Shown here: one piece after another, positions 1,047 to 62,145 of the stretch
Numbering within the stretch: position 1 is the stretch's first letter
Layout of the letters: each line of letters opens with the position of its first letter
From: Chitinophaga pinensis
Lineage (GTDB): Bacteria > Bacteroidota > Bacteroidia > NS11-12g > UBA955
Direction of reading: 5' to 3'
DNA length: 64,000 bases
Assembly (NCBI GenBank): GCA_945877575.1
Contig: CAMDUE010000003.1
Span: forward strand, 88,174 to 152,173
Program-made: the position numbers and the translations under genes
The notes under the pieces: model-generated
Database searches by the model: none
The model's input: the letters and a program-made list of their open reading frames with translations, nothing else
Told to the model about the DNA's origin: nothing

Positions 1047-1061
1047 CAACACATTATTTCC

Positions 1062-3368
1062 ATGAAATCCTATTTCAAAGTTCACCCTTGGAAGGTCATT
1101 GAAGAAGGTTTTGACCCTCAATACAACGAAGTTGCTGAAAGCGTTTTTGCCATCGGAAATGGCATGATGGGGCAACGCGCAAATTTAGAAGAAACGTACA
1201 CCGGTCATACCCTTCAAGGTACCTATGTGGGTGGGGTTTATTACCCAGATAAAACCCGAGTGGGCTGGTGGAAAAACGGCTATCCAGAATATTTTGCCAA
1301 AGTCATAAACAGTACTTATTGGAGCGGTATTGTATTGAAAATCAACAATGAAGAAGTTGATTTAAAGAATGCCACCATCAACCAGTTCTATCGTGAATTA
1401 GACATGTTCAACGGTGTGTTAAATCGCCGTAGCACCATCACCTTATACAACGGCATTGAGGTTACCATTGAGTCTACCCGTTTTTACAGCCTCATCAACA
1501 AAGAATATTCCGCCCTCCGATACCGCGTTAAAACCAATCAGAATTGCGAGGTTTCCTTAACCAACTACCTAGATGGTGATATATCCAACAAAGACAGCAA
1601 CTACGACGAGAAATTCTGGCTCGAAGAGCATCAAGAAAGCACGTCCAACGAGCTTCATCTATTGGTTAGAACCAAGAAACTCGATTGGCTTTTAGCTACC
1701 TCTTGCGTGGCTCAGTTTTTCCTCGACGGCGAAACTTTTTCTCCCGAACCGCATCACCAAACGCGCTCTAAATATGCGGAAAGTACTTATTCTTTTTCTC
1801 TTTCCGGGGGACATGAATTCGTGTTTGTGAAACACGTCATCTCTGCCAGCAACTTCAATCATCCTAATGATGCTGTCTTAATTCACGCGAAAAATGCCGT
1901 AAAAAAAATGGCTTCCTCCACTTTTGAATCTCACCTCGAAATGAGTTCAAAAGCATGGAACGAAAAATGGAACAACCACGATGTAGTTGTTGAAGGCGAT
2001 GATGCTGCCCAACAAGCCGTTCGTTTCAATATTTATCATCTTAACCAAACCTACTGCGGCGACGACCCACGATTGAACATCGGTCCTAAAGGATTCACCG
2101 GCGAAAAATACGGCGGAAGTACCTATTGGGACACTGAAGCGTATTGCCTCCCGTTCTATCTCGTTTCCAGCCATTCCAGCATATCCAAGCAACTGCTTGT
2201 TTACAGATATAAACAGCTCAATAAGGCCATTGAAAATGCCGCAAAACTAGGATTCAATAACGGTGCGGCTTTATATCCCATGGTTACCATGAACGGTGAA
2301 GAATGCCACAACGAGTGGGAAATCACCTTCGAAGAAATCCACCGAAACGGAGCCATTGCTTATGCCATTCACAACTACATTGAGCATACTGGAGATCGCG
2401 CATACCTTGCCGAAGGCGGATTTGAAGTCCTTTTGGGGATATCCAGATTTTGGGCACAACGAGTTCATTGGAACGCGAGAAAGGAACGTTATGAAATGCA
2501 CGGCGTAACCGGCCCCAACGAATACGAAAATAACGTAAACAACAATTGGTATACCAGTTACATTGCTATGTGGTGTTTGAAATACACCCGTCAATCTGCT
2601 GAATTTTTACAATCCAAATTCCCACAAATTTTTGCAGAAATCAGTCGTAAAACTGCATTTGACCTAGCTGGTGAAACGGCAAAGTGGAATCACGTGGTTG
2701 AAAATATGTATCTCCCCTACGACAAGGAAGATAATGTTTTTGTGCAGCACGATGGTTTCTTAGATAAAGAACTCATTCCCGTTAATGATCTTCCTGCCGC
2801 TGATAGACCCCTAAACCAAAAATGGAGTTGGGACCGAATTTTGCGCAGCGTTTACATCAAACAAGCCGATGTCTTACAAGGTCTCTATTTCTTTGAAGAC
2901 GACTTTGATCAGGAAACACATAAGCGAAACTTCCTATTCTACGAACCCTTCACCGTGCACGAAAGCTCGTTAAGTCCTTGTGTTCACAGCATTTTGGCGG
3001 CCAAAATAGGAGAATTTGACAAGGCATATGAAATGTACTTACGTACTGCTAGGTTAGACCTTGACAATTACAACAACGACACCGAAGACGGACTCCACAT
3101 TACCTCTATGGCAGGAAGTTACTTGAGCATTGTTCAGGGTTTCGGGGGACTAAGAATCAAAAATCTGCATCTTCAACTGTCTCCTTCCCTACCCAATCAG
3201 TGGAAGAAATATGCCTTTAAGATTCTTTATCACAATCAACCTGTAAACATTGAGGTTTCACAGAATCAAGTTTGCATCAGCAACTTGGGTGAATCTACCA
3301 TTGAATTCAGTTTGTATGATCAATTGCATACCTTAAATGCTGGTCAGAGTTCGGTTTTCAATCGTTAA
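1062..3368 (+). CDS. GH65 family disaccharide phosphorylase (maltose/kojibiose/trehalose phosphorylase-like)
   Basis: The 768 aa length and the N-terminal region (HPWKVIEEGFDP...FAIGNGMMGQRANLEE) are typical of GH65 phosphorylases. It sits directly downstream of beta-PGM. Confidence 0.85.
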   Translation: MKSYFKVHPWKVIEEGFDPQYNEVAESVFAIGNGMMGQRANLEETYTGHTLQGTYVGGVYYPDKTRVGWWKNGYPEYFAKVINSTYWSGIVLKINNEEVDLKNATINQFYRELDMFNGVLNRRSTITLYNGIEVTIESTRFYSLINKEYSALRYRVKTNQNCEVSLTNYLDGDISNKDSNYDEKFWLEEHQESTSNELHLLVRTKKLDWLLATSCVAQFFLDGETFSPEPHHQTRSKYAESTYSFSLSGGHEFVFVKHVISASNFNHPNDAVLIHAKNAVKKMASSTFESHLEMSSKAWNEKWNNHDVVVEGDDAAQQAVRFNIYHLNQTYCGDDPRLNIGPKGFTGEKYGGSTYWDTEAYCLPFYLVSSHSSISKQLLVYRYKQLNKAIENAAKLGFNNGAALYPMVTMNGEECHNEWEITFEEIHRNGAIAYAIHNYIEHTGDRAYLAEGGFEVLLGISRFWAQRVHWNARKERYEMHGVTGPNEYENNVNNNWYTSYIAMWCLKYTRQSAEFLQSKFPQIFAEISRKTAFDLAGETAKWNHVVENMYLPYDKEDNVFVQHDGFLDKELIPVNDLPAADRPLNQKWSWDRILRSVYIKQADVLQGLYFFEDDFDQETHKRNFLFYEPFTVHESSLSPCVHSILAAKIGEFDKAYEMYLRTARLDLDNYNNDTEDGLHITSMAGSYLSIVQGFGGLRIKNLHLQLSPSLPNQWKKYAFKILYHNQPVNIEVSQNQVCISNLGESTIEFSLYDQLHTLNAGQSSVFNR

Positions 3369-3371: not shown

Positions 3372-4640
3372 TTACTTCATCAGTTTGTAAAGGAATTCCA
3401 AATTCACCTCATCTATTCTTGTCATACCATTGGATTTAATTACCGTTTGGGCATTGACAATCTGTACATTGAAATAAGGCAACAACTGTGATAGATCAGT
3501 TGCTTGACTTTCACTCAATTCAACGGCTTTGCTAAAATCAAATCCCAAAGGGGTACAAATGAGCATTGCTGCATACTTTACTTCATCTGAATTCTTAAAC
3601 AAAGCCTTATCAGCTTCTGTCAATTGACTGTTCCTCAAATCAGGAAACGTCTTCACCATGCGCTGCACGTTCACAAACTTAGATTCAAACCCTTGTATCA
3701 TCCAGGCTGCAGAAATGTATTTACCAGTTTTAAATGGTAGAGGGGTGTTGGTAGTTGGTACTGGGTTGTTGGTAGTTGGTAGGGGGTCGTTGGTAGGGGG
3801 CAGAGGGTCGGGGGTAGTTGGTAGACTGTCTTGATTTATTACTGAGCCGACGGGGAATTCACTATATAGTAGTCTTTTTCCATAGCGATAACGGTCTTTA
3901 TTTACCATGGCAATATAATTTTGCATATTGTCTTGGCGGTAGTTGATTCTAAATTTGACTTTTTTGGAGGTATTTTGAAGTTCATGAATCACTACCTCTG
4001 GAATGGCCGTCCAATTCAATACGAAGCCTGCCCCTAAAACTGCACCAATGGGGGCTAATATTAAACCTGCTACTGGCTCTTCAATTTCATAATTCACAAT
4101 AACAAAGGTAATAATCGCACCAGCAACAGCACCAACAGAACCATCTCTAATCAACTTATCTTCTAAGGTATTTCCGCGTCTGATATACCAAATATCATTA
4201 TATGGCACAAAGCCCAATTTCTTGACTGATTTTCGATACAAATAAACTCCGTTTGAATCTGCTGCAATTAATTTCCCTTTTGTAAGCTTCCGTTTTTGAG
4301 AAAAGATCTTGTCTTTCCTTTTTTGATCTCCGAATTTCAAATAAACCTGCTGTCTTACTAAACCACTCCTTGAAAACTGTCCAATTGACATTTTCACTTT
4401 ATAATAAGGCGTCTTCTGTAAGCGATATCTATTTCGCAGAGAATCAAGCAGTTCTTGGGTGATATCGTAATATGAAATGGTGCCAAGATTCGTATTATTT
4501 AAAGGCGGCAAAGGTCTATTGGAAATACTGAGAGCCGATTCGCTTCCACTTCCCATAAGTCCTTGCCCGAAGGAATATCCCCCGGAAAAAAAAGAAAAAA
4601 CTAACGCAATAATCCTTAAAGACAAAGCACTTTTTTGCAT
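3372..4640 (-). CDS. hypothetical membrane protein with a Pro/Thr-rich repeat linker
   Basis: There is an N-terminal signal or TM segment and an internal PTTPDPLPPTNDPLPTTNNPVPTTNTPLP repeat (a GTTGGTAG DNA repeat at 3740..3830). Hydrophobic segments follow downstream. There is no recognisable catalytic domain. Confidence 0.5.
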   Translation of the reverse strand: MQKSALSLRIIALVFSFFSGGYSFGQGLMGSGSESALSISNRPLPPLNNTNLGTISYYDITQELLDSLRNRYRLQKTPYYKVKMSIGQFSRSGLVRQQVYLKFGDQKRKDKIFSQKRKLTKGKLIAADSNGVYLYRKSVKKLGFVPYNDIWYIRRGNTLEDKLIRDGSVGAVAGAIITFVIVNYEIEEPVAGLILAPIGAVLGAGFVLNWTAIPEVVIHELQNTSKKVKFRINYRQDNMQNYIAMVNKDRYRYGKRLLYSEFPVGSVINQDSLPTTPDPLPPTNDPLPTTNNPVPTTNTPLPFKTGKYISAAWMIQGFESKFVNVQRMVKTFPDLRNSQLTEADKALFKNSDEVKYAAMLICTPLGFDFSKAVELSESQATDLSQLLPYFNVQIVNAQTVIKSNGMTRIDEVNLEFLYKLMK

Positions 4641-4702
4641 GGAACGAAACTAACAACTCTCATTCAAACAAATTTTGCATTTTTTGCAAATGACCCAAAA
4701 AG

Positions 4703-4723
4703 AATTACGGAAAATCCTTAATT
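4703..4723. promoter_or_regulatory. dyad motif AATTACGGA-AAA-TCCtTAATT, with one mismatch, about 60 nt upstream of the 3372..4640 gene
   Basis: The sequence was read directly. It is a near-identical copy of the perfect dyad at 46112..46132. Confidence 0.45.
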
Positions 4724-4725
4724 GT

Positions 4726-6264
4726 CTAATTCTTTATGAATCTAAATATTGAATCCCCTTGCGAGCCAGCGCTATGAATAATATATACGCCAACCGGCCA
4801 ATCCTGAATATTGATGGAGATTGTGGGAGAAATTACATTATCTCCATACATCAGATTGCCAACGGAATTGTACACGCGAATATTAGACCTGTAAGGCAAA
4901 TTAATAACTCTGATCTCATTGGTTGAGGGATTTGGATAAGCCACGATTTTATTTTTATTTATCCCTGAAACATTCAACATCTTTAAAGGTGTGGTATCTA
5001 ACTCCAAGTTTTCATCGCCCGTTTTATAGAGGGTATACCAATAATAAATGAGAAACATTTCATCAGCAGTTCCCTCACCCGCGGCAACATCTCTGGGCGG
5101 CATGTTGGGATTGTGAGGATTGGCATACGTATTGTCATAGGTGGCCTTGCCCCATAATACGGAACCCTTGGGTGATACGATAGGTTTCCTGAATTGATAA
5201 GCCATTTGCCAGTGAAAATCCCACTTTGGAATGTCAATAATATCTGTGGTATCAACGCCGTTTACGAGGAAAGATTTAATCGAATCCCCCAAAAGATGCA
5301 TATGAGGTGCAACAGCAAGGAGGCTGATTTTAGCGGGCATAACAAATCGATTGGAAAAGGATTTAATGGTATTAGCCTCGATATACAAAGGTCCGTTTAT
5401 CAATGAGTTGTTGCTAAAATTCAAAGGGGATTGCACAAAAACCTCCCTTTGACTTTTGGGGTCTTCTAACATTAAATTCAACTTAGTAGAATCCCAAATT
5501 TGATTGATACCCGGAGGATAGTGTATTTGTATAACAATGACACTGTTCTTTTTCAATCTTGCAGCAAAGTCCAAAGGATAGATAAAAGGAGATTGACCAG
5601 GAACATACATACCCATTAGGACCGACGTAGCACTACCGGTACTTCCAAAAGCGGAATATCCCGGCTCCGGATCGGCATTATCCAATTGAAGTGGTTTTTG
5701 AGAAGTATCTTGAAAGATCAATACGTGATGTACAATTTTTCGATTACCAGGAACAACTTCCATTCCCTTAATCATTTTATCAATAAATAAATTACTTGGA
5801 ATAGCGAAACATCGATAAACATCATCATTGGTTTTCACCAAATAAGGAGTCATTTTATAGGTAGCATCAACCCTTGGCAAATCACTTTTTGAATTTTGAA
5901 CGGGCTTCTTCGGCTCTTTGGAAGTATCTCCTTGGGGATGATTGTTCTCGTTCCAACGCTTAATTACATCTATTTCATAAGCTGATAATACATTTTCATG
6001 GGCATACCTATTCTTCTCGAGGCTTGCTGGGAATGGTGGCATTCGCTTTGCTTGTGTAGCGGAAACCACAGCATTACCTAAATATTTCACCTCATTATAA
6101 TTGCTCAATGCGAAAGGAGCAATACCTCCCGCACTGTGGCAGGGTGTGCAACTCTTATAGATGATGGGTGCCACATGCTCGCTCCAGTTGGGGCCAGATT
6201 GAGCGTCGATCTTTAATACCGAAAAAATCAAAAAAGATAAAACTGAAAACCGCTTGAATTGCAT
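4726..6264 (-). CDS. secreted fusion protein: c-type cytochrome (CXXCH) domain plus a copper monooxygenase (PHM/DBH-like) domain, with a T9SS C-terminal sorting domain
   Basis: A signal peptide is present. The CTPCH heme-binding motif lies near the N-terminus. HHVLIF and PHMHLLG, with ...ADEMF, look like the CuH/CuM His/Met ligand motifs of type II copper monooxygenases. The last ~75 aa (YPNPSTNEIRVINL...VGVYIIHS...) are a typical Por/T9SS sorting tail. Confidence 0.5.
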   Translation of the reverse strand: MQFKRFSVLSFLIFSVLKIDAQSGPNWSEHVAPIIYKSCTPCHSAGGIAPFALSNYNEVKYLGNAVVSATQAKRMPPFPASLEKNRYAHENVLSAYEIDVIKRWNENNHPQGDTSKEPKKPVQNSKSDLPRVDATYKMTPYLVKTNDDVYRCFAIPSNLFIDKMIKGMEVVPGNRKIVHHVLIFQDTSQKPLQLDNADPEPGYSAFGSTGSATSVLMGMYVPGQSPFIYPLDFAARLKKNSVIVIQIHYPPGINQIWDSTKLNLMLEDPKSQREVFVQSPLNFSNNSLINGPLYIEANTIKSFSNRFVMPAKISLLAVAPHMHLLGDSIKSFLVNGVDTTDIIDIPKWDFHWQMAYQFRKPIVSPKGSVLWGKATYDNTYANPHNPNMPPRDVAAGEGTADEMFLIYYWYTLYKTGDENLELDTTPLKMLNVSGINKNKIVAYPNPSTNEIRVINLPYRSNIRVYNSVGNLMYGDNVISPTISINIQDWPVGVYIIHSAGSQGDSIFRFIKN

Positions 6265-19193: not shown

Positions 19194-19604
19194 GTGCTTA
19201 CGAAAAAGGCTAAATACGCATTAAACGCTTTGGTGTATCTATCGAATAATGCTACAGAAAACATACCCATTACAGCTTTTAAAATTGCTCAAGACAATGA
19301 TATTTCACAGAAATTTCTTGAATCCATTTTGATAGAAATGAAAAAAGTTGGTTTACTCGGAAGCATGCACGGTAAGGGTGGAGGATATTATTTACGAAGA
19401 TCTCCAAATGAAATTCAATTGGTTGAAATTATTCGAATGTTCGATGGAGCTGTTGGCCTTATACCCTGTGTTACCCACCAATTTTTTGAGCCATGCAAGG
19501 AATGTAAAGACATTGAGACCTGTAAAATTAGATTTACTTTCAAAGAATTGAGAGATCTTAATGTTGAATTTTTGAAAAAAAGAACTCTAAAAGACCTATT
19601 GTAA
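19194..19604 (+). CDS. Rrf2-family transcriptional regulator
   Basis: The N-terminal winged HTH (KAKYALNALVYL...) and the 136 aa length fit. It is transcribed divergently from the cys operon. Confidence 0.8.
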   Translation: MLTKKAKYALNALVYLSNNATENIPITAFKIAQDNDISQKFLESILIEMKKVGLLGSMHGKGGGYYLRRSPNEIQLVEIIRMFDGAVGLIPCVTHQFFEPCKECKDIETCKIRFTFKELRDLNVEFLKKRTLKDLL

Positions 19605-19609
19605 GATGT

Positions 19610-42139: not shown

Positions 42140-42919
42140 ATGAAAAATAAGTGGAATGTGATTCTTGCCGCCATCATTCTTGGGGGATGCTCATTGTTTT
42201 CAAATGGCATCAACGTATTTCCTGTCACTACAGATTTAGCCTTCGGAGCTCAAGTTGCCGCTGATATCGATAAAGAAAACAGCAAAAACTTGCTTGACAG
42301 TGCATCTAACAGCGTTATTTACCGTTACTTATATTCCATAAGAGACAGTATCCTTAGAAACAATGAAATTGAGCACGAAAACAAATTCCCTTGGCGAATC
42401 AGAATCATTAAAGACGATCAAACCCTGAACGCCTTTTGCACCCCAGGAGGATACATTTATTTCTACACCGGAATATTGAAATATTTACAATCAGAAGACG
42501 AATTAGCCGGTGTCATGGGGCACGAAATGGCACATGCCGCTAAACGCCACAGCACCGACGCTTTAACCCGTCAATACGGTGTCACCATCTTTACCCAGTT
42601 GTTAATTGACACACAATACCATGATCTGACCCAAATTGCTGCAGGCCTAGCGCTGTTGAAATACGGCCGAAAAGATGAATTGCAATCCGATGAATTTAGT
42701 GTTCGTTGGTTGTATAACACCAGTTATAATCCCACAGGTGCTGCAGGATTTTTTGAGAGAATGAACGCCTCAGGCGGACAAAGAGTGCCTGCATTTTTAA
42801 GTACTCACCCCGATCCAGGCAAAAGAGTAGAAAAAATTCATGCCTTGCATAAAAAATTGGGTGGAAAATCAGGGAATAAATACGAAGAGCGCTACAAACA
42901 GATGATTAAGTACATCTAA
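42140..42919 (+). CDS. M48-family zinc metallopeptidase lipoprotein
   Basis: The lipobox is LGGC. The zinc-binding motif is HEMAHAAKRH (HExxH). Confidence 0.75.
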   Translation: MKNKWNVILAAIILGGCSLFSNGINVFPVTTDLAFGAQVAADIDKENSKNLLDSASNSVIYRYLYSIRDSILRNNEIEHENKFPWRIRIIKDDQTLNAFCTPGGYIYFYTGILKYLQSEDELAGVMGHEMAHAAKRHSTDALTRQYGVTIFTQLLIDTQYHDLTQIAAGLALLKYGRKDELQSDEFSVRWLYNTSYNPTGAAGFFERMNASGGQRVPAFLSTHPDPGKRVEKIHALHKKLGGKSGNKYEERYKQMIKYI

Positions 42920-45225
42920 TATATAGCCAATCCCATCAAATACCGCAAAGCCGTTTTTACCACTCGTCCAGCAAATTCATAGTGCGATTCAGATCCTCCG
43001 GAAACGCAGTACAAGGAGAATCTCGTTAATATCAAGCTTTTTAAAGAATAGCGCGCCGTTTTTACATATTCCAACCAATCTTCATCTAAAAGAGCTGCAT
43101 GTTTCTTTGCGTGTCCCTCGAAATCATCATACGGCAAGTCTAGAAAGCTCAAAAACTCCATGATGTCGCGGTGAGGATAGTCGTTCATGCATAATTCCCA
43201 ATCGTAAATCACGGGCTCACCGTTGTTCAATATCATGATATTCCGTGGATTAAAATCATTGTGAATGACACAAATACGCGAACTAAGTGTAGAGAACTCA
43301 AGTTCCAATTGACTCAATTGTAACGATTCCAAACAACGAAAATCAACTTCGTCAAACTGAATATCTTTGCGAACGGAATCCAAAAATAATGCATTCAATC
43401 GTTGATAGAATTTCATTGCCTTCCAAGGCCGTTGCAGTGGAAACTCATTTGCAATTTCAGCTTTGAATTGAAGATTATGGAAATCATGAATCGCTTCAAT
43501 ACAAGCATCTATATCACCCAAACTCCATTTTTCAGGCTCATTCTCGCAGTTCAGAATCTTTGTTTCTGTTGGATGTATGAACCGTTGAAGAAGCAAATAA
43601 ATCTCTCGCTTTTCATCTTGTTTGATGCCAAATAATTTGGGAAAATACGGATATTCAACCTCGTTAAGCCATTGAGCCATTGAAACTTCTTTCAGATGGC
43701 ATTGATCAAATTCTAGTTTCTTTCTGTCTTCCAAAATGGCAGCAGCTAAGGCAGAATCAATTCCACTGGCTACCAAATGCAACCCTTTATAAACTTCTTC
43801 ACTTGTGGGTCTAGACTTCAATAGCACACGATCAACTTCGTTGATCTTCAACAAATAATAGCCTTGCAACTTCGAAGTGACCCGAGTGGTCAGCTGGGTA
43901 ATGATACCGTTATCAAAATACTCGTGACTTTGCCACTCAATTTTTTCTACTTTAGATTTGTAGGAATCATACAAGCAGGCCCTCAGAAAATCAACATCCA
44001 CTTCCGATTTCAACAACCAATCAACTGGTTTATTTCGTCCTAACTTTTGATGCGCTCGAGCAAATTCTCCACTAACAATGGCTCCAAAAGTAGAAATCTC
44101 TAACCCTAGAGCCGCACCCGCAATGATCCTAGAAAAACGCTGTAATTGACCACGGCCATGACAACCCATCATCTGAAGTGCTTCTTTTTGCTTGGGAAGA
44201 TGAGTACCACCGCCCACGGTTCCAACCACTAAATTGGGAAACGTAATTTCAAAACAAAGTCCTTTTTGCGTCTTTTCAATATTCAAAAACGCCGTTGATG
44301 ATTCATGCAAACACGCTGCATCTTGCCCAGTAGCCAAAAATATCGAAGCCAAGGCATTAGCTACATTGATATTGTAACCCACCATACCTTCTTTTTCAGC
44401 AGCCTCTTTCGAAGGATGATAGAATTTGAAAAATTGATTTGAATCTACCCTTAATACATCTTTCAACACTTCGTCTGAAACCTCTACCGACGCAGATACT
44501 TTGCAACCGCGGCCATGATCAATGTTGTACTGAGATATTTTCTTATCGGCGGCGCCATTTCCTTCAATGACATAATCTAAATGCACATGGGGATACAGTT
44601 CCCCAAACTCTGCCGCAATATGCAACAAAGCATGCCAAGTGCAAGTAGTTGTCATATTTTGACCCGCTGCATCACCCGTTTGGTAATAAAACTTGGTATT
44701 TAAATTAGATCCAAATACATCTGTTTTCATTTCGAGTAGCTTGGCGTGATTGCTGTAAGACTCAGCCACTGATTTAATTTCTTCAAAATGGGAGTTTAAA
44801 TATTCTTCAAGCAATTTCGCATTTTGATTTGAATCCAAAATAAACAGTGGCGCGCGCAACATTCGTTGATAATGAAAGTCAGAATCAAATCCTCCTGAAA
44901 GAGCGATTACGCGAGCTCCGCGATTCATGGAATACACCAATGCACCTTCAAGGGTTGCGGCGGGTAAAAAAACAACTTCAGCTGGAAATTCTGATAATTC
45001 TTTATATGCAATGGGACCAACCAATCCAACGGGAATTTCAACGCTACCAACAAAAGATTCGATGTTGTGATTGATTTCATCAAGGGGAAGCTGATGGCTG
45101 AAAAGTCGAGACGAGTCTAATTGCAAGCCCTTCAAAAAATCTTGCCTCAACAAAACCGCTTGGCTTGTGTTAAACCCTCTTCCTGGTACTTTTGGTGCTC
45201 TATCAAAAAAATGCCCCTCTGACAT
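42916..45225 (-). CDS. fusion protein: HMG-CoA-reductase-like domain (N-terminal ~400 aa) plus an APH/choline-kinase-type phosphotransferase domain (C-terminal ~350 aa)
   Basis: The N-terminal half has HMGR class I-like blocks (...GSVEIPVGLVGP..., DAAGQNM, GTVGGGT). The C-terminal half has the APH catalytic loop IHNDFNPRNIMI and the DWE metal-binding block IYDWELCMND. Confidence 0.65.
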   Translation of the reverse strand: MSEGHFFDRAPKVPGRGFNTSQAVLLRQDFLKGLQLDSSRLFSHQLPLDEINHNIESFVGSVEIPVGLVGPIAYKELSEFPAEVVFLPAATLEGALVYSMNRGARVIALSGGFDSDFHYQRMLRAPLFILDSNQNAKLLEEYLNSHFEEIKSVAESYSNHAKLLEMKTDVFGSNLNTKFYYQTGDAAGQNMTTTCTWHALLHIAAEFGELYPHVHLDYVIEGNGAADKKISQYNIDHGRGCKVSASVEVSDEVLKDVLRVDSNQFFKFYHPSKEAAEKEGMVGYNINVANALASIFLATGQDAACLHESSTAFLNIEKTQKGLCFEITFPNLVVGTVGGGTHLPKQKEALQMMGCHGRGQLQRFSRIIAGAALGLEISTFGAIVSGEFARAHQKLGRNKPVDWLLKSEVDVDFLRACLYDSYKSKVEKIEWQSHEYFDNGIITQLTTRVTSKLQGYYLLKINEVDRVLLKSRPTSEEVYKGLHLVASGIDSALAAAILEDRKKLEFDQCHLKEVSMAQWLNEVEYPYFPKLFGIKQDEKREIYLLLQRFIHPTETKILNCENEPEKWSLGDIDACIEAIHDFHNLQFKAEIANEFPLQRPWKAMKFYQRLNALFLDSVRKDIQFDEVDFRCLESLQLSQLELEFSTLSSRICVIHNDFNPRNIMILNNGEPVIYDWELCMNDYPHRDIMEFLSFLDLPYDDFEGHAKKHAALLDEDWLEYVKTARYSLKSLILTRFSLYCVSGGSESHYEFAGRVVKTALRYLMGLAIY

Positions 45226-45287
45226 ATCAAAGGGGCAAATATATCGTGTTAACAGACAATTGATTTACGATTTATCACAAATCGCAA

Positions 45288-45305
45288 ATTTGAAATTACG
45301 GATTT
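45288..45305. promoter_or_regulatory. half-site of the AATTACGGA dyad motif (as TCCGTAATTTCAAA on the minus strand), about 65 nt upstream of the HMGR-kinase gene start
   Basis: aaatccgtaatt(t)caaa occurs both here, on the minus strand, and at 46121..46136. Confidence 0.35.
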
Positions 45306-45317
45306 ACGCAACTACCC

Positions 45318-46060
45318 TTACCTCGGATGTCCAAGGGCACTTTCTATCAGGAAGCGTCTCATCAAATGGTTGTTGGTTGCGGTACCTGTCCAAGCTCCGA
45401 CACCAAAATAATTTCCACCAGCTGTAAATGAACCAATGTATGAAGTACCAATGAAGGTTCCATCAATTTTAATATCCAGGTTCCATCGCCACCATTTGTG
45501 ACGCTTCCTGCGTACAAATTAGCAGCAATATGCAAAGGCTTGCTCCAATCAATGGTTTGTTGCCAATAGATCTTGCCGTTTTGATTTGCTGAATTGGGTG
45601 TAAGTTGAACGTATCCCGTAGTATTTGAAGCGTTGCCAACAAAAGTAGCTGCTGGAGATAATGATGTGGGATTTCCGAGTGTCCAGTTCCATTCCATTAC
45701 ACCAGGGCTCGTGGTTTGATCTTCAAATCTAACCCATGCAGTTCCGTTCCAATAGTAATACCCAGGAGTAACGTTGTTAGGATAAGACCCTGCAGTGGCA
45801 GTATTGTATACCAACATGGATGTAGTTGGCGAGGTTAACGGTGAAGCAGAAGTCAAAGAAGTAAGTGCCACTCTCGACAACAAAACACCCTTTGTGCTCG
45901 ATGTAACATCCAACTGTGCTGAACTAGAAGGCGTTGTAGTACCAATTCCGACTTGTGCTTTCACAGTGCAAAATGGCGTTGTGATCAAGACAAATAAGGA
46001 GAAGAATCTAAGCGGAGACATAGTATTTAAGTTGATAAATTTACAAACAAAATAGTTCAC
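45318..46060 (-). pseudogene. disrupted paralog of the L-type lectin-like secreted protein family (an internal deletion of about 80 codons with a frameshift)
   Basis: The N-terminal ~190 aa (to NGGDGTW) align with the 55329 and 56260 paralogs. After a frame change the C-terminal homology continues in another frame (...DIKIDGTFIGTSYIGSFTAGGNYFGVGAWTGTATNNHLMRRFLIESALGHPR) and ends at the TAA at 45318..45320. Confidence 0.6.
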
Positions 46061-46111: not shown

Positions 46112-46132
46112 AATTACGGAAAATCCGTAATT
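46112..46132. promoter_or_regulatory. perfect dyad AATTACGGA-AAA-TCCGTAATT, about 65 nt upstream of the UbiA operon start. A candidate operator.
   Basis: The 9 bp inverted-repeat arms were read directly. A related copy lies at 4703..4723 and a half-site at 45288..45305. Confidence 0.5.
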
Positions 46133-46198
46133 CAAAGTTGTGTATTTGCGTTTATCCTTTTTGTACAATAACCAAAACTGCATAGATTCGCCGCCCTA

Positions 46199-47146
46199 TT
46201 GAAAACCCAATTCAACCCAATGAACCAAAATCAACCCCTATACTCCCGTTTTTGGATATATCTTACCGAACGATTTCCACTTCACTCACACGGAATTTTA
46301 ATTGCCGCATTTAGTTTTAGCGCCATTGGTTACTCCCGATTGTGCCAACAACTGCCTCATTTTATTGACCTCAAGGCCTTCTTAGTTTGCATCTTCAATA
46401 CCGTTTCCTTGTTTTTTCTTCTTCGTGTATTCGATGAACACAAAGACGCTGAAGACGATGCAAAATTCAGATCGGAATTACCCGTTCCACGCGGACTTAT
46501 TTCGCTCAAAGAACTACGCAACATTGGCTTGACCATATTTGTTTTTCAACTGATCATCAGCGCTGTAACCTTTCCTAAAATGCTTCCGCTTTATGCGGTG
46601 GTTATTGCTTATTTATTGCTCATGGGAAAAGAATTTTTCATGGCTGATTGGCTTAAAAAACACCAATTCTGGTACGTCACCAGTCACATGATCATCATTC
46701 CACTCATTGACATTTATGCCTCTGGTTACGATTGGCATTTAAATCAACGTCCTGCGCCGTTCGGATTGATCTACTTTTTTGGTGTCTCCTTCTTTAATGG
46801 AATTGTGCTAGAGCTCGGCCGGAAAATCCGTGCCCCCCACGATGAAAAACCAGGAGTTCAGACGTATTCCAGCATGTTGGGATTGTATAAATCAGTCTAT
46901 CTATGGATAGCAGTCCTTTTTGCAACTCTAGTTCTCGCTTTGCTTGCCGCAGAATTTGCAAAACTTCCAACGGGCGTTTTTACCGCTCTTTGTGTTTACT
47001 TTGTTTTGACCTTGTTGGCCGCCGTTTGGCACCTAAAAAAGCAAAGTTCTGCTTCTGCTAAAATCATTGAAATTGCCAGCGGAGCTTGGACCATACTCAT
47101 GTATTTAACCCTTGGCGGTATTCTAACCATTACTCACATTTTATGA
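46199..47146 (+). CDS. UbiA-family prenyl/alkyl-transferase (integral membrane)
   Basis: The Asp-rich motif is RVFDEHKDAEDD (NDxxDxxxD-like). There are about 8 TM helices in 315 aa. Confidence 0.7.
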   Translation: MKTQFNPMNQNQPLYSRFWIYLTERFPLHSHGILIAAFSFSAIGYSRLCQQLPHFIDLKAFLVCIFNTVSLFFLLRVFDEHKDAEDDAKFRSELPVPRGLISLKELRNIGLTIFVFQLIISAVTFPKMLPLYAVVIAYLLLMGKEFFMADWLKKHQFWYVTSHMIIIPLIDIYASGYDWHLNQRPAPFGLIYFFGVSFFNGIVLELGRKIRAPHDEKPGVQTYSSMLGLYKSVYLWIAVLFATLVLALLAAEFAKLPTGVFTALCVYFVLTLLAAVWHLKKQSSASAKIIEIASGAWTILMYLTLGGILTITHIL

Positions 47147-49620
47147 GTAAATTCATCGATACAAATAGCCCGTTTGACATCCAGTTTAATCAAATGTATA
47201 CGGGTGGCAAAGGATTTCACCTATTGCAACTTGCTCGAAACGGATTTCAAGTTCCTGAATTCATCATTTATAACGCGACTGAAACATCCATCAAAACACC
47301 CTTGAATCCAGATGAAATTCAACTCATCAAAGAATCTCTGGGCTTCCCTCATAGGGTATCGATAAGATCTTCGGCTCTTGGTGAGGATGGATTTTCACAC
47401 AGTTTTGCTGGACAATTTCTCACTGAGCTCAATGTTTCTTGGGAAACCCTTAACGATAGCATTGAACGCGTTTGGAACTCCTTGAACCGCACCGAAATCG
47501 AAACGTATTGCAAAGAACACGGAATCAATGTCCCAAATAAAATGTCCATCATCATCCAAACCATGCTCCAACCTGACTTTTCAGGCGTTGCATTTGGTGT
47601 AAATCCGGTGAATGGACACCGCAACGAAATGATCATTACGGCAGCCCCGGGACTTGGAGAAGCACTTGTGAGTGGGGCCGTAAATGGCGATACTTTTGTT
47701 GTGAAGGATGACTCAGTTGAATGTATTTCAGGCGAAGCCGCATCCCCAGAAACACTAAGCACTGAACAGGTAGTTGCCGTGGGCGAACAACTCAAACGGC
47801 TCAAAAAACTATACGGAAAACCCCAAGACATTGAATTTTCTTGGGTCAAAAATGAGTTGTTTTTACTTCAAACAAGACCAGTAACTTCCTTAGATAAATT
47901 GGCTGATACCGGGGCAGAGATGATTCTCTGGGACAATTCAAACATCATTGAATCTTACCCCGGCGTAACCACCCCTTTGACGTTTAGTTTCATCATCAAA
48001 ATGTATGAATCCGTCTATCTGCAACTTTGCAGATTGTTGGGAGTAAGCGAAAAAGACTTACGTGAAAATGCCGCCGTATTTTCCAATATGCTCGGCCTAA
48101 TTGAAGGAAGGGTTTACTACAATTTATTGTCGTGGTATAAAGCGTTGGCGCTGCTTCCTGGATATCATTTGAACGCAGAGTTCATGGAAAAAATGATGGG
48201 GGTTAAAGAACGATTTGAGTTGAAAAATCGGCCTCAAAGAAGTAAGCTAATTGAGCGCTTAAGAGTTTTGGTCATGGTAAAATCCATGATATCCAATCTC
48301 AGGGCATTGCCTAAAATGCGAATCAACTTTCAAAGTGATTTCCAAAAAGAATTAGACCGGTTCAATGCCATAGCTTTGGATAAAAAGAACGTTGTTGAAC
48401 TGATGGAACTCATGATTGATTTCCAAAGCACGCTTCTTAAAAAATGGAAAGCACCCTTGGTGAACGATTTTTACGCCATGATTTACTTCGGCTTACTTCA
48501 AAAAACTGCCGAAAAATATGGTTTACCTCCAGGAATACACAACGATCTTTTATGCGGGGCTAGCGATATTATTTCTACCGAACCCATAAAGCGCATGAAG
48601 GAAATCAGTTCAGCCATTGTACAATTTCACACCCTTGAAAATGCATTTCTCATTGAGTCGCCAGAACAAATTCTGAGGTTGATCAATGAACCTAATTATG
48701 AACCGGTGCAAAAACTCTTCGATACCTATTTGAATCAATTTGGCGACCGAACTGTGGGAGAGTTAAAATTAGAAACCATCACCTATAAACAAGAACCTAC
48801 CGCTTTGATTCAATTGATCCAATCGTACATAAGACAAGGCTTTGGGCATTCTGAAAATGTGAATGAACGAGTGGATCTCAAAATGCGTAAAAACGCAGAA
48901 GAAAAAGTAGGTCACATTTTGAAAGGTAAGCCTTTCAAAAAATGGTTCTTCCACTATTTACTGAAGCGCACTCGCATATTGGTCAGTGCCAGAGAAAACC
49001 TCCGATTTGAACGAACCCGAGGATTTGGAAAAGTACGCGAAATATTTTTGGCTATAGGCAATCAATTCTTCAGTGAAGGCATTTTGGAGCATCCCAGAGA
49101 TATTTTTTACCTTACCCAAGAGGAAATCTTCGACTTCATCAAAGGCACATCGGTAACCCCAGAAATTTCAGAATTGGTATCCTTCCGAAAGGAAAAATTT
49201 GCAAAATACGAAACCACTACCACATCTGAACGCATCAGAACTTACGGAGCAGTTTACCACGGGAACTCATTCTCACAAGAAAAATCAACATCCCTTGACG
49301 GAGAAGATCTGAAAGGCATTGGTTGTTGCCCAGGAATCGTAAAAGCAAAGGTGCGTATAGTTTTAGACCCCAAAGAGGTGAGCGATTTAAACGGTGACAT
49401 ATTGGTAACCGCCTCAACTGACCCCGGCTGGGTAACACTATTCCCCACGGCTTCAGCCATCATTGTAGAACGAGGTTCACTGCTCTCGCACAGTGCCATC
49501 GTATCTCGCGAATTAGGCAAACCCTGCATTGTAGGTGTGACCCATCTGTTATCAAAAATCAAAACCGGCGACTGGGTAGAGATGGATGGTTCAACAGGAC
49601 AAATCAAAATAATCAAATAA
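47143..49620 (+). CDS. PEP-synthase-family dikinase with rifampin-phosphotransferase-like architecture (ATP-grasp N-domain, central domain, C-terminal swivelling phospho-His domain; no PEP/pyruvate TIM barrel)
   Basis: The N-terminal PPDK_N block is YTGGKGFHLLQL. The C-terminal mobile domain is ...GDILVTASTDPGWV...SLLSHSAIVSRELGKPCIVG (catalytic His), and the protein ends straight after it. I moved the start to MSKFIDTN (ATGA overlap with the UbiA stop). Confidence 0.7.
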   Translation: MSKFIDTNSPFDIQFNQMYTGGKGFHLLQLARNGFQVPEFIIYNATETSIKTPLNPDEIQLIKESLGFPHRVSIRSSALGEDGFSHSFAGQFLTELNVSWETLNDSIERVWNSLNRTEIETYCKEHGINVPNKMSIIIQTMLQPDFSGVAFGVNPVNGHRNEMIITAAPGLGEALVSGAVNGDTFVVKDDSVECISGEAASPETLSTEQVVAVGEQLKRLKKLYGKPQDIEFSWVKNELFLLQTRPVTSLDKLADTGAEMILWDNSNIIESYPGVTTPLTFSFIIKMYESVYLQLCRLLGVSEKDLRENAAVFSNMLGLIEGRVYYNLLSWYKALALLPGYHLNAEFMEKMMGVKERFELKNRPQRSKLIERLRVLVMVKSMISNLRALPKMRINFQSDFQKELDRFNAIALDKKNVVELMELMIDFQSTLLKKWKAPLVNDFYAMIYFGLLQKTAEKYGLPPGIHNDLLCGASDIISTEPIKRMKEISSAIVQFHTLENAFLIESPEQILRLINEPNYEPVQKLFDTYLNQFGDRTVGELKLETITYKQEPTALIQLIQSYIRQGFGHSENVNERVDLKMRKNAEEKVGHILKGKPFKKWFFHYLLKRTRILVSARENLRFERTRGFGKVREIFLAIGNQFFSEGILEHPRDIFYLTQEEIFDFIKGTSVTPEISELVSFRKEKFAKYETTTTSERIRTYGAVYHGNSFSQEKSTSLDGEDLKGIGCCPGIVKAKVRIVLDPKEVSDLNGDILVTASTDPGWVTLFPTASAIIVERGSLLSHSAIVSRELGKPCIVGVTHLLSKIKTGDWVEMDGSTGQIKIIK

Positions 49621-49625
49621 ATTGA

Positions 49626-51539
49626 ATGGCGGAGCAATCTGAACTCAATATATCTCAAAAAGCCTCGTTTGATTTCATCCGATATGCCACGGTTTGGGAA
49701 GACCCCGTGGTACTTCTTCAGGCGCTCAACATCGAAAAAAACGACCAGGTTTTGAGCATCGCTTCTGCCGGAGATAATTGCTTCAGCTTATTGATGGCAG
49801 ACCCAAAATTGATTGTTGCAGCCGACATCAATCCCGTTCAATTGCATCTCACGGAGCTAAAAATCAAAGCCATTCAGGAGCTTTCTTACCAGGAAGTTCT
49901 TGCTTTTTTGGGATATTCATCTGAGTCAAATCGAGCGGAATTATTCAATAAAATCGAGCCCCACCTTTCCAAAGAAGCTGCTCATTATTTTAGAAATTCC
50001 CTTCCCACTTGGGAAAAAACAGGCATCATACATCAAGGAAAATTCGAAAAATACTTCCAAATTTTCTCCAGAAAAGTACTGCCCCTGATTCACAGTTACA
50101 AAACCATTGAACAGTTGCTTACACCCAAATCGGAACATGAGCAACGCCAATTTTTCCTCCGACATTGGAACACCTGGCGTTGGCGATGGTTGTTCAAATT
50201 ATTCTTCAGTCGTACCGTCATGGGTTGGTTGGGCCGCGATCCAGAATTCCTAAAACAGGTAGAAATTCCAGTTTCAGAATTCATCTTAAGGCAAGCAGAA
50301 ATACACCTCAGCTCCAGTCGGGCCGCACAAAATCCGTTTTTAAGATACAACCTAACAGGCAGTTTTGGAACCCTTTTACCGCACTACCTTCAACCCGAAA
50401 ACTTCGAATTCATCAAAGACAGAATTCACCGAATTTCACTCTTTCACGGCTTCGCCGAGGATGCAATAGCTCAATACGGACATTTTCACGCCATGAACCT
50501 GAGCAACATCTTCGAGTACATGAATGTTCAAGAATTTGAGCAAACAGCTCAAAAATTAGTAAGTGGCCTATTCCCTGGCGGACGATTAGCCTATTGGAAT
50601 CTCATGGTAAAACGAAGGTGCTCAGAGGTAGTTGCTGACTGCACAGAACAGACCAATCTCATGTCCGAGCTTCGGCTCAAAGACGATGGCTACTTTTACA
50701 GCACCATTGTAACGGATGTTTGTCTTAAATCTTTTGACTTTGGAATTTATAGGCTCAATTCAGAAACACTTGCAGTAGGTTACCCATCGAAAGAGGGAAG
50801 CAATTTAAATTTAACCGAGCAACTCAAAGCCCTTACACTATGGGCCAAAAATGAGGGATTCAAACACCTAATAGGCCCAATGAATGGCAGCACTTGGGAA
50901 AATTATCGTTTAAAAACCTCTTCCCATCGCATTTTTTTGGGGGATCTCTCGTATCAGCCACAAGTTGTAGAAAGCTTTGAAAGTGCAGGATTTAAAACCA
51001 TTGAGAGATATGTGAGTGCCCTGATGCATGAAATTCCAGGTAGTATTTCCAGATTGGATGAGCGAAAGAGCCAACTAGAGAAACAAGGAATCAAATTCCG
51101 ACACTTAAACATGGAGTCTTGGGAACAAGAACTTCAAAAAATCCACGAGCTCAGCCTCGTGGCCTTCCAAAATAACCCTTTCTACACCCCCATTCTTTGG
51201 AAAGACTTCTTGTTGAAGTACAACGAAATCAAACAATTCATTGACCCGCAATGGGTCCTTTTAGCAGAATTGGAACAAAATTTGCAGGGGTTTGTCTTTG
51301 CTTACTTAGACCTTGAATATAAATGCATCATCATGAAAACTGTTGCTCGAAAACCTGACTTTAGACTTGGTGGATTGGGATTGGTGATGACCGATATTTT
51401 ACAACAAAAAGCCAAAAAAGAAGGCATTTTTCAAGTCGTTCACTCATTCATGCATCAAGACGCTGCATCTCTTAGATGCTCTGAATCTTTAGAAGCTGAA
51501 ATTATTTCTGAATACCATCTGTACGGAATAGAACTTTAA
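49626..51539 (+). CDS. fusion protein: DUF3419 (BtaA-like SAM 3-amino-3-carboxypropyl transferase) N-domain plus a GNAT-like acyltransferase C-domain
   Basis: The N-terminal ~400 aa carry a ...YATVWEDPVVLL... block typical of BtaA/DUF3419. The C-terminal ~230 aa carry a GNAT motif-A-like FRLGGLGLVM (R-x-x-G-x-G). Confidence 0.5.
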   Translation: MAEQSELNISQKASFDFIRYATVWEDPVVLLQALNIEKNDQVLSIASAGDNCFSLLMADPKLIVAADINPVQLHLTELKIKAIQELSYQEVLAFLGYSSESNRAELFNKIEPHLSKEAAHYFRNSLPTWEKTGIIHQGKFEKYFQIFSRKVLPLIHSYKTIEQLLTPKSEHEQRQFFLRHWNTWRWRWLFKLFFSRTVMGWLGRDPEFLKQVEIPVSEFILRQAEIHLSSSRAAQNPFLRYNLTGSFGTLLPHYLQPENFEFIKDRIHRISLFHGFAEDAIAQYGHFHAMNLSNIFEYMNVQEFEQTAQKLVSGLFPGGRLAYWNLMVKRRCSEVVADCTEQTNLMSELRLKDDGYFYSTIVTDVCLKSFDFGIYRLNSETLAVGYPSKEGSNLNLTEQLKALTLWAKNEGFKHLIGPMNGSTWENYRLKTSSHRIFLGDLSYQPQVVESFESAGFKTIERYVSALMHEIPGSISRLDERKSQLEKQGIKFRHLNMESWEQELQKIHELSLVAFQNNPFYTPILWKDFLLKYNEIKQFIDPQWVLLAELEQNLQGFVFAYLDLEYKCIIMKTVARKPDFRLGGLGLVMTDILQQKAKKEGIFQVVHSFMHQDAASLRCSESLEAEIISEYHLYGIEL

Positions 51540-51540
51540 A

Positions 51541-53118
51541 ATGTCTAACATCATTCATATCGCAAAAACCCTGAAAAATGGAAACATCATGGAGCATTTC
51601 CATGCTGCCGCGATCATGAATTCAAATCGCCTTGCCATTGCCGATCAGCATTCGCAAGTGACTTTTGATGAATTAAGACATAAAATTGAAAACGCTCATT
51701 CATTATTTATGGAGCGTGGCCTTAAATCCGGCGACCGTGTTTTGGTCTTTGTGCCCATGAGTATTGATTTATACATCAGCGTTTTAGCTTTATTCAAAAT
51801 GGGCTGTACCGCCGTTTTCATTGATGAGTGGGCCAAAATAGACCGTTTAAAAAAGTCATGCCAAATAGCAGATTGTAAAGGATTTATAGGCATTCCCGCT
51901 GCATCTTCTTTGGGATTCTTAATCCAGGAAATTAGAAAAATCCCCGTCCGCATGACCACACGAGAAATTCGACATGCAAAGAAAAGTCATTACCATGATT
52001 TGGCAACTATTGATGGTTCAAACGACACCGCGCTCATCACTTTCACTACGGGCAGCACAGGCACACCCAAAGCGGTAAAACGCAGCCATGAAATTCTCCA
52101 TCAACAGTTTTTGTCCCTCCAAAACACCATACAAACCCGCGATGACACTGTAGATATGCCGGTGTTACCCATTGTTTTATTGATTAATTTAGGGTTAGGG
52201 GTCAGCAGCGTAATCGTAAAATGGAGCAGCAAAAAGCCTTACGCACTGAAGGCAAAAAAGATCATCAAAACCATACAAAAATTTCGGGTCAATCGCATCA
52301 TTGCTTCCCCTTATTTCATTGATCAACTTTGCATTAAGAGCCTTACCGAAAACAATTCTCCAAAATTAAGTTCGGTGCGCGAAGTCTTCAGCGGAGGAGC
52401 GCCTGTTTTCCCATCTGAAGCCAAATTATGGCTCACTGCATTTCCAGACTCTAAAGTTGAAATTGTATACGGAAGCACCGAGGCCGAACCTATTTCAAGC
52501 ATCAATGCACGGAAACTCATGCAAACCACCGACTCCACTTTTGAGGATGGGCTTTTTGTGGGAAGAGTAGAATCTTGTACACAAGTTAAAATTCTAAATC
52601 TAAAAACTCAGGAAACTCTCAAACCCATAGAAATCGGGGAGATTGCGGTTGCAGGAAATCATGTTGTAAAAGAGTATTTTGGTCCTGATTCTGCTGCTCA
52701 AATGGCTGAATCAAAGCTTCTCATTGATGGACATTTATTCCACAAAACGGGAGATTCCGGCTACATTGACCACCAAGGAAACCTTCATTTATTGGGCCGC
52801 TGCCAACAAATCATTGAGTGGCAGGGACAACCGTTGTACCCATTTCTGATGGAATATCAACTGCGCCACATTCCTGGCGTAATTATGGGTACCGTCTTAA
52901 AAATCAACGATAAACTCGTTTACTTCTTAGAGTTAAAACGCTGTAAATCCTTCCAGCATCTAGCATACCCAAAACTGGGTTGCTTCTCGCCCATTACCGA
53001 GGATTTGCGTTCCTTGGGACTGCCTGACGGCGACATTCGACTGGTCAAGATACCAAGAGATCCCAGACATTTCAGCAAGATTGATTATAGAGTTTTGCAA
53101 AAAATGCAAAAAATGTAA
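51541..53118 (+). CDS. AMP-forming acyl/aryl-CoA (or carrier-protein) ligase
   Basis: The AMP-binding motif is TFTTGSTGTPKAV, with ...YGSTE... The start is 2 nt after the upstream stop. Confidence 0.75.
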   Translation: MSNIIHIAKTLKNGNIMEHFHAAAIMNSNRLAIADQHSQVTFDELRHKIENAHSLFMERGLKSGDRVLVFVPMSIDLYISVLALFKMGCTAVFIDEWAKIDRLKKSCQIADCKGFIGIPAASSLGFLIQEIRKIPVRMTTREIRHAKKSHYHDLATIDGSNDTALITFTTGSTGTPKAVKRSHEILHQQFLSLQNTIQTRDDTVDMPVLPIVLLINLGLGVSSVIVKWSSKKPYALKAKKIIKTIQKFRVNRIIASPYFIDQLCIKSLTENNSPKLSSVREVFSGGAPVFPSEAKLWLTAFPDSKVEIVYGSTEAEPISSINARKLMQTTDSTFEDGLFVGRVESCTQVKILNLKTQETLKPIEIGEIAVAGNHVVKEYFGPDSAAQMAESKLLIDGHLFHKTGDSGYIDHQGNLHLLGRCQQIIEWQGQPLYPFLMEYQLRHIPGVIMGTVLKINDKLVYFLELKRCKSFQHLAYPKLGCFSPITEDLRSLGLPDGDIRLVKIPRDPRHFSKIDYRVLQKMQKM

Positions 53119-54681: not shown

Positions 54682-54755
54682 TGGGCCCACTTGGAATCGA
54701 ACCAAGCACCTACTGATTATGAGTCAGTTGCTCTAACCGAATGAGCTATAGGCCC
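54682..54755 (-). tRNA. tRNA-Met (anticodon CAT; elongator or possibly Ile-lysidine type), copy 1
   Basis: Hand-folded: GGGCCTA-TA-GCTC-ATTCGGTT-AGAGC-A-ACTGA-CTCATAA-TCAGT-AGGTG-CTTGG-TTCGATT-CCAAG-TGGGCCC-A. G1-C72 are paired. CCA is not encoded. Confidence 0.8.
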
Positions 54756-62143: not shown

Positions 62144-62145
62144 TG

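Follow-up and report, generated by a model that had tools for sequence, protein, structure and literature searches.

A 21-bp dyad phased with promoter boxes is a probable transcription-factor site of an isoprenoid/lipid gene cluster in uncultured Bacteroidia

An uncultured member of the Bacteroidia, represented by a metagenome-assembled genome in which T9SS sorting domains are present, carries a short palindromic element upstream of a UbiA operon, of a gene for HMG-CoA reductase fused to a kinase (HMGR-APH), and of a gene for a secreted repeat protein. This element is probably a transcription-factor site which regulates the adjoining promoters in cis. In the window, i.e. the whole stretch of 64,000 nucleotides that was analysed, a first-pass annotation had reported a dyad, a one-mismatch copy and a half-site, and all three were found at the positions it gave. 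The perfect 9-3-9 dyad AATTACGGAAAATCCGTAATT, composed of AATTACGGA-AAA-TCCGTAATT, lies at 46112-46132 (site A). The sequence AATTACGGAAAATCCTTAATT at 4703-4723 (site B) differs from it by one mismatch, and the half-site AATTACGGA is found at 45294-45302 (site C), where the minus strand reads TCCGTAATTTCAAA. The sites and their predicted target genes are as follows.

46112..46132, no strand assigned: site A, perfect 9-3-9 dyad, with the UbiA-proximal arm TCCGTAA at 46124-46130
4703..4723, no strand assigned: site B, read gene-ward (minus strand) as AATTAAGGA-TTT-TCCGTAATT, proximal arm intact, C to A change in the distal arm
45294..45314, minus strand: site C, TAGTTGCGTAAATCCGTAATT, upstream of HMGR-APH, proximal arm TCCGTAATT intact, distal arm of the TTGCG type
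46220..53118, plus strand: UbiA operon, predicted target (UbiA prenyltransferase, PPDK/Rph-like PEP-utilising enzyme, DUF3419, AMP-binding enzyme)
42916..45225, minus strand: HMGR-APH gene, predicted target (HMG-CoA reductase fused to an APH-type kinase)
3372..4640, minus strand: secreted-protein gene, predicted target (422 aa, Pro/Thr repeats, without a Pfam family)

Site A occupies the centre of a 198-bp region from which UbiA and a PTL_trimer/lectin-like gene (45362..46021, minus strand) diverge. Site C is flanked on one side by the stop codon of this lectin-like gene and on the other by the start of HMGR-APH, and site B starts 3 nt past the stop codon of a T9SS cargo gene (4726..6264). The estimates that the copies lie about 60 nt upstream of the 3372..4640 gene and about 65 nt upstream of the HMGR-kinase gene agree with the distances of 62 nt (from ATG 4640) and 68 nt (from ATG 45225) that we obtained. 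For the UbiA operon, also put at about 65 nt, the placement was right and the distance was not: the called start is ATG 46220 rather than TTG 46199, so that the dyad ends 87 nt before the gene.

Perfect 9-bp inverted repeats with loops of 0-8 nt produced 15 matches in the window (about 10 of them distinct), as compared to about 6 in Markov-1 resampled sequences. A lone repeat of this kind is not rare, and the signal therefore resides in recurrence and conservation. Full dyads with up to three mismatches occur exactly twice (sites A and B), against 0.07 expected from 100 shuffles. A position weight matrix (PWM) was derived from 18 sites and scanned over the 64 kb and over shuffles. Only sites A, B and C exceeded the shuffle range (site C with a score of 20.7); all three are situated in promoters, and their flanks are mutually unrelated.

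A genome-wide motif search had been proposed as a check for a dispersed REP-like repeat; the scans described here brought out low copy number, promoter or intergenic bias and orthologous conservation. The strict pattern AATTACGGANNNTCCKTAATT was scanned over 185,579 genomes, one per species (596 Gb), the source genome not being among them, and 15 stretches were recovered, close to the estimated chance number. Thirteen of these belong to unrelated organisms; the other two (L101 and L107) are both from a single MAG that shares 94% identity with the window, and they correspond exactly to sites A and B; the whole genome of that MAG contains no further strict copy. The form TCCGTAAT was present in 14 copies in 182 kb, comprising the window, its contig extensions and the relatives, and 11 of the 14 were classed as intergenic (binomial p about 1e-11, for an intergenic fraction of 6% left by a crude ORF mask). 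Two more copies, both in L121, proved intergenic on inspection. The sites lie 42-90 nt upstream of start codons. Many copies, mostly outside promoters, would be expected of a REP-like element; what we observed is three sites in 64 kb, all in promoters. Given the strict and PWM scans and the intergenic bias, the objection that the motif is a dispersed repeat therefore fails. The contig extensions of 10 kb on either side contained no further site or regulator, and a literature search on the sequence words returned nothing relevant.

Orthologous conservation was examined by fetching the loci of UbiA relatives (identities from 97 to 68%) and reading the element upstream of UbiA in each.

Window and 97% relatives (L116 and L101 identical): AATTACGGA-AAA-TCCGTAATT
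L119 (80% UbiA identity): AATTAAGGA-TAT-TCCGTAAAC
L142 (77% UbiA identity): TTTTACGGA-TAA-TCCGTAATT
L120, L122, L123 and L156 (about 70%): only the proximal arm TTTTTCCGTAAAA kept
L144 (68% UbiA identity): AATTACGGA-TTT-CCCTTAAAA

The arms are conserved among relatives and the spacer varies (AAA, TAA, TAT or TTT). Substitutions in the arms are all one-sided and never compensatory, for example the C to A change confined to the distal arm at site B and in L119. Constrained arms, a free spacer and one-sided changes point to a protein that reads duplex DNA rather than to a hairpin. From the dyad to the -7 box described below (46112-46190), no differences from the 94% relative were detected, while its flanks differ at 18/96 and 6/32 positions (about 19%). 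Site B is identical in five strains or species, and a site of the same class as site C precedes HMGR-APH in L116 and L142. Relatives have the element at further, non-orthologous promoters too. In L122, a full dyad with one mismatch, AATTACGGATTTTCCGTAATG (at 15569), lies 40 nt upstream of a lipoprotein gene that follows the operon, and L143 has a half-site at the equivalent place. Tandem sites were encountered twice: 32 nt apart in L121, between the gene of an M16-like peptidase (identified by reading its N-terminal sequence) and a secreted-protein gene, and at a spacing of 31 nt in L143, ahead of a lipoprotein gene. The element is absent from L154 (62% UbiA identity) and from Dyadobacter-like loci, and is therefore lineage-restricted.

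In an alignment of 13 sites, TCCGTAA and the TT of the distal arm are invariant. Two classes can be distinguished, namely true dyads TTACGGA-N3-TCCGTAA and sites in which the distal arm reads TTTGC(G/A), including site C. Since the gene-proximal arm TCCGTAA(T) is the conserved unit and the distal arm is often degenerate, the perfect palindrome is best regarded as the strongest version of a broader site family. The centres of ACGG and CCGT are 9 bp apart. Three properties expected of a transcription-factor site were found: dyad symmetry with half-site centres about one helical turn apart, non-random location in promoters, and orthologous conservation with constrained arms and a free spacer.

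The sites also keep a fixed distance from a core-promoter box. In Bacteroidota, the promoter consensus reportedly consists of a -33 element TTTG and a -7 element TAnnTTTG. We searched for -7-type boxes as TAnnTT[T/C]G or TAnnTTGC within 110 nt downstream of TCCGTAA, and each of the three window promoters contained one.

46183..46190, plus strand: predicted -7 box TAGATTCG of the UbiA promoter, exactly 52 nt after TCCGTAA and 19 nt after TTTG
4645..4652, minus strand: -7-type box TAGTTTCG of the 422-aa gene, exactly 52 nt past the proximal arm of site B and 4 nt before ATG 4640
45236..45243, minus strand: perfect -7 box TATATTTG of HMGR-APH, exactly 52 nt past the arm of site C and 10 nt before ATG 45225

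The offset is thus 52 nt in three of three window promoters, each with only one such box within 110 nt, and 52 or 53 nt in every UbiA ortholog scanned for a -7 box. An offset of 21 nt was found in three further promoters (L142 HMGR, with the box TATCTTTG, and the lipoprotein genes of L122 and L143), and offsets of 41 and 72 nt for the two tandem sites of L143. None of 16 control copies of TCCGTAA had a box at these offsets, the chance being 0.0035 per site. The difference between 52 and 21 is 31 nt, i.e. three helical turns. Assuming a transcription start about 5-6 nt past the box, the centre of the dyad would lie near -74 in the 52-nt class and near -43 in the 21-nt class. In the alignment of relatives, TA..TT.G of the UbiA -7 box is invariant. 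A phased putative -7-type box accompanies all sites, and the canonical TTTG-N19 arrangement is confined to UbiA, the boxes being consensus matches backed by conservation and phasing; promoters with the site at 21 nt lack a canonical -33 element. For the 422-aa gene, an alternative promoter TTTG-N19-AAAATTTG is available at 4699..4669, so the assignment of the box at 4645..4652 is putative.

As the boxes precede the ATG by only 4 nt (422-aa gene) and 10 nt (HMGR-APH), leaderless or very short leader mRNAs are predicted. Either these two genes would have leaderless or near-leaderless mRNAs, or else the boxes are not their promoters, which is the weak point of the model. Boxes of the -7 type situated 4-12 nt before a start codon were noted at 4645-4652 and 45236-45243, near 2380 in L143 and near 15610 in L122, which suggests that several promoters of the putative regulon are leaderless or near-leaderless. 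The annotated ATG of HMGR-APH is itself enclosed in a terminator-like hairpin, TGCCCCTTTGATATGTCAGAGGGGCA followed by a T-run (45212-45237, minus strand); its left arm is not conserved in L116, and L142 has a different hairpin with a T-run just before the ATG.

Downstream of two of the sites, traces of a second unit could be recognized.

46145..46163, plus strand: second block of the UbiA promoter, TTTGC-N5-TCC-TTTTTG, 31 nt downstream of the proximal arm
45263..45283, minus strand: putative degenerate second unit of the HMGR promoter, GATTTGTGATAAATCGTAAAT, about 31 nt downstream of site C

The UbiA block, which can also be written TTTGC-N5-TCC(T/G)TTT, contains the -33-type TTTG at 46160-46163, and its TTGC, TC and T-run are invariant in 10 of 10 aligned relatives. 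Its PWM score of 9.2 falls within noise, so the case for it comes from conservation; from its sequence, it looks like a degenerate second unit. The unit in the HMGR promoter reads TTTGTGATAAATCGTAAAT (PWM score 7.8, within noise); it is unchanged from the window to L116, whereas bases next to it differ.

Three other explanations of the element were weighed. It is unlikely, in our opinion, that TCCGTAA(T) represents an upstream promoter element (-35/-33-like) read by an alternative sigma factor such as an ECF sigma serving envelope genes. Such a factor would account for the single arm as the conserved core, for its distance of 21 nt from the -7-type box in three promoters (canonical TTTG being at 19 nt), and for the predominance of secreted, lipoprotein or lipid-synthesis genes among the targets, which is typical of an ECF regulon. 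However, the perfect or nearly perfect two-fold symmetry present at independent loci (sites A and B, and L122 at 15569) would be useless to a sigma factor, the 52-nt distance between arm and box in three window promoters is too long for sigma contact, and the 84 kb inspected contain no sigma or anti-sigma gene. An ECF promoter is an asymmetric pair of -35 and -10 elements with a single fixed spacing, as a rule with a sigma or anti-sigma gene in its vicinity; the 21-nt class would fit this description, but the palindromes and the 52-nt class do not. A sigma-54 promoter (TGGCAC-N5-TTGC) at the invariant TTGC was also considered and rejected, as there is no GG at the required position.

It is considerably less probable still that the dyad acts as a nucleic-acid hairpin, either as an intrinsic terminator of the upstream gene or as an RNA structure in the 5'-UTR. 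Site A does fold well as RNA (z = -4.8 and -6.2), yet it lies in a divergent region with nothing to terminate, and the fold of site B, where the position 3 nt after a stop codon and the CTTTTT that follows on the minus strand would suit a terminator, is no better than that of shuffles (z = 0.02). Intrinsic terminators are stable G+C-rich hairpins that precede a U-tract and lie downstream of a gene, and none was called at any of the three sites. Long terminator-like palindromes in one phage family and one unrelated MAG do include this core dyad; against this stand the lack of compensatory changes and the retention of one arm only by site C and many relatives. A search of the window with Rfam 15 covariance models at the gathering score yielded only two tRNAs and no match at the dyads, which also speaks against a structured RNA. 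Moreover, transcripts from these promoters probably do not include the dyad, since it is situated upstream of the conserved -33 and -7 boxes. We give hardly any credence to the last explanation, in which the element would be a dispersed repeat (REP-like, MITE-like or of another type) or a functionless chance similarity. Perfect 9-bp inverted repeats are admittedly not rare in this AT-rich window, and in viral and genome collections the 14-base core is about as frequent as chance would predict. Nevertheless, three promoter sites with unrelated flanks in 64 kb, and a related MAG whose only two strict copies are the orthologous ones, are not what such repeats would leave behind, and neutral repeats cannot explain the strict conservation and the phasing with the -7 box.

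A transcription-factor site thus being the preferred reading, the element was compared with known systems. Dyads bound by class I and class II activators of the CRP/FNR type are centred near -41.5, or integral helical turns upstream of this, for example at -72.5. Our element resembles them in being a two-fold symmetric site presented on one helix face, with two positions three turns apart (about -43 and about -74). It differs in its sequence, which is unlike TGTGA-N6-TCACA or TTGAT-N4-ATCAA, in its odd spacer, which places the symmetry axis on a base pair, in the -33/-7 promoters of Bacteroidota it accompanies, and in that its activating role is a putative one; no Crp/Fnr-family gene was seen near the sites. 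NrdR boxes are reportedly tandem palindromes about 31-32 bp apart. Tandem units about three helical turns apart are likewise found here (32 nt in L121, 31 nt in L143 and 31 nt for the second units of UbiA and HMGR), and by analogy this spacing suggests that binding may be cooperative, on one helix face. The sequence and the target genes are different from those of NrdR boxes, and no NrdR-type ATP-cone regulator is implicated. With REP/BIME palindromes, the dyad has in common that it is short and intergenic, but it is low-copy, located upstream rather than downstream of genes, devoid of conserved flanks and phase-locked to promoter boxes. The operators of NrtR-family AraR in Bacteroides are 21-bp palindromes or semipalindromes, often in tandem, which are recognized by a dimeric winged-helix protein through the experimentally defined site GTGT-N7-ACAC (PMC4666351). 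Although length, palindromic form, occurrence in Bacteroidota promoters and tandem arrangement are shared, the core of our dyad is ACGG-N5-CCGT and not GTGT...ACAC, which sets it apart from AraR/NrtR sites. The dyad fails the sequence definitions of CRP/FNR, AraR/NrtR and NrdR sites alike; it is probably a lineage-specific transcription-factor site.

The first-pass annotation saw no cognate regulator in the window, and we likewise found no convincing one there or within 10 kb on either side. The Rrf2 gene at 19194..19604 is an unlikely candidate: it is associated with sulfate-assimilation genes on a 34-kb island which is missing at this place in the 94% relative that keeps both sites, and the motif does not adjoin it. 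An NrtR-family AraR-like gene lies about 0.6 kb outside the window (8202-9146 of the contig extension L146, about 0.45-1.4 kb before window base 1) and is divergent from an operon of BcrAD_BadFG, beta-phosphoglucomutase-like HAD and GH65 genes (window 13..3368). Its product is a close homologue of Bacteroides thetaiotaomicron AraR (BtAraR; E = 9e-41), with the recognition helix DKRNFRR as compared to DKRNFRK, and the divergent region of the gene contains a GTGT-N7-ACAC site of its own, AAGTGTTTTTTTGACACTAA (L146 9067-9086). Accordingly, GTGT sites rather than TTACGGA-N3-TCCGTAA are the predicted targets of the protein. A TTACGGA...TCCGT repeat does occur beside the gene; it has an 8-nt spacer and contains the single polymorphic position seen there when four strains are compared. 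On the basis of the helix, of the GTGT site and of this differently spaced, polymorphic repeat, the gene was rejected as the cognate factor. Most likely, it encodes a local repressor of the sugar operon.

Matches in the viral collection were also inspected. The 14-base core occurs there at or below chance (96 stretches), and the recurrent matches belong to a few phage families. In an AT-rich phage family (about 31% GC; IMG/VR L010, L015, L017, L025, L029, L034, L061, L073, L086 and L089), TTACGGA-N3-TCCGTAA has a variable spacer and conserved flanks (AAGACnAA ... nnTAATGTGTCA) and is located about 30 nt upstream of a gene for a 965-972-aa family-B DNA polymerase; it might serve this gene as an operator at the level of translation or of transcription. 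In L023 (440-478; IMG/VR), a pair of complete dyads is found, 22 bp apart. In L077 (7776-7813; IMG/VR), a Mu-like element, a dyad and a third half-site lie 45-60 nt upstream of an XRE/CI-like HTH gene that is divergent from a 128-aa gene. Neither the window nor the loci of the relatives contained a homologue of this XRE-like protein, so the viral matches do not provide a regulator candidate. Elsewhere, the dyad forms the tip of a long perfect palindrome, GGCTAAAAAGAATTACGGAATTTCCGTAATTCTTTTTAGCC, in an unrelated Bacteroidia MAG (L102, about 1077-1127), and of GAATGAAAAAAGGTCTTACGGA...TCCGTAAGACCTTTTTTCATTC in L008, L038 and related viral loci; these palindromes look like bidirectional terminators unrelated to the window sites.

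According to the model we propose, a sequence-specific DNA-binding protein would bind the element, most likely a homodimeric helix-turn-helix transcription factor in view of the two-fold symmetry. The core recognized would be TCCGTAA(T), with strong sites adding an inverted copy 3 bp away, and the 9-bp spacing of ACGG and CCGT would suit two recognition helices in successive major grooves. Weak sites would have a degenerate distal arm of the TTTGC type, and units might be stacked at intervals of 31-32 bp. As the proximal arm ends 21 or 52 nt before the -7 box, the site would be locked in helical phase with the core promoter, allowing the bound factor to touch RNA polymerase from one face of the helix and to activate transcription, presumably in a class II or class I manner. 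The main alternative mode would be cooperative repression through the degenerate second unit, which overlaps the -33 element. Activation is slightly favoured over repression, because the phase dependence is strict and promoters of the 21-nt class have no -33 element. The predicted regulon would be small and lineage-specific, comprising the operon of UbiA, PPDK-like, DUF3419 and AMP-binding genes, the HMGR-kinase gene and a few genes for secreted proteins or lipoproteins.

It had been suggested earlier that the dyad is the operator of a dimeric regulator. The cis-regulatory nature of the element, as opposed to a REP-like one, stands; the term operator implies repression, however, and the phasing fits an activator at least as well. 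As for the dimer, the two-fold symmetry speaks for it, but the conserved unit is a single arm, and the distal arm upstream of UbiA has been lost in the 70% clade, so dimer binding, where it occurs, would not be required by all sites. The proposed connection between the UbiA operon, the HMGR-kinase gene and the 3372..4640 gene is borne out by the shared word and by the same 52-nt distance to a -7-type box.

A more far-reaching reading can be offered only tentatively and is on balance doubtful: a lineage-restricted regulon whose regulator, of no recognizable family near the locus, would co-ordinate cell-envelope proteins and a bacterial isoprenoid-lipid pathway by activating leaderless or near-leaderless promoters in a phase-locked manner. 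The pathway genes concerned are those for HMG-CoA reductase, UbiA prenyltransferase, the PEP-utilising enzyme and DUF3419, together with CDP-alcohol transferases in relatives. In any case, a 21-bp site with defined arms and a fixed promoter distance represents a testable handle on the control of an unusual isoprenoid/lipid cluster, and the predicted co-regulation of the cluster, the HMGR-kinase gene and the secreted repeat protein helps to delimit the functional unit. The site could also serve as bait for finding the regulator; otherwise, this is ordinary promoter biology.

The organization of the cluster varies in more distant relatives. In L154 (62% UbiA identity; 8703-19764), it forms a single operon in the order HMGR, UbiA, PPDK/Rph-like, CTP_transf_1, CDP-OH_P_transf, DUF3419, acetyltransferase, Polyketide_cyc2 and AMP-binding, and the HMGR is without the kinase fusion. 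The two CDP-alcohol-pathway genes of this operon suggest an isoprenoid-bearing polar lipid as the product of the cluster. In Dyadobacter-like loci, HMGR is located immediately before UbiA.

Site B and the UbiA cluster are separated in the window by a block of 34 kb (about 7333-41199) which is missing at that place from the 94% relative, L107 passing directly from 7333 to 41199. It contains a TonB-dependent receptor, cysQ/cysC/cysD/cysN-like genes, the Rrf2 regulator, many glycosyl- and sulfotransferases, Wzy, an ABC exporter and a GNVR/AAA_31 chain-length regulator, and looks like a strain-variable sulfated-polysaccharide island. In this relative, where the island is missing at that position, no more than about 9 kb would separate the two dyads; the 3372..4640 gene, regarded as distant by the first-pass annotation, may therefore be an original neighbour of the UbiA cluster. 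The Pro/Thr-coding repeats of this gene (window 3735-3832) vary in length among strains, giving proteins of 422, 431 and 452 aa (L146-L149), and in L107 the identity of the repeat part is no higher than 85%. A second gene, near 62.2 kb (62137-62337), contains a similar repeat.

Some further features of the locus were recorded. Three paralogous PTL_trimer/lectin-like genes are present (45362-46021, 55329-56213 and 56260-57186), and the TCCGTAA motif is absent upstream of both paralogs at 55-57 kb. The L101 assembly starts inside the lectin-like copy adjoining UbiA, where there may be a contig break. Two identical tRNA gene copies (54682-54755 and 57928-58001) lie 3.2 kb apart, and a VapBC-type pair (DUF2281/DUF6364 antitoxin-like and PIN-domain genes) is located at 53165-53949, right after the last gene of the UbiA operon.
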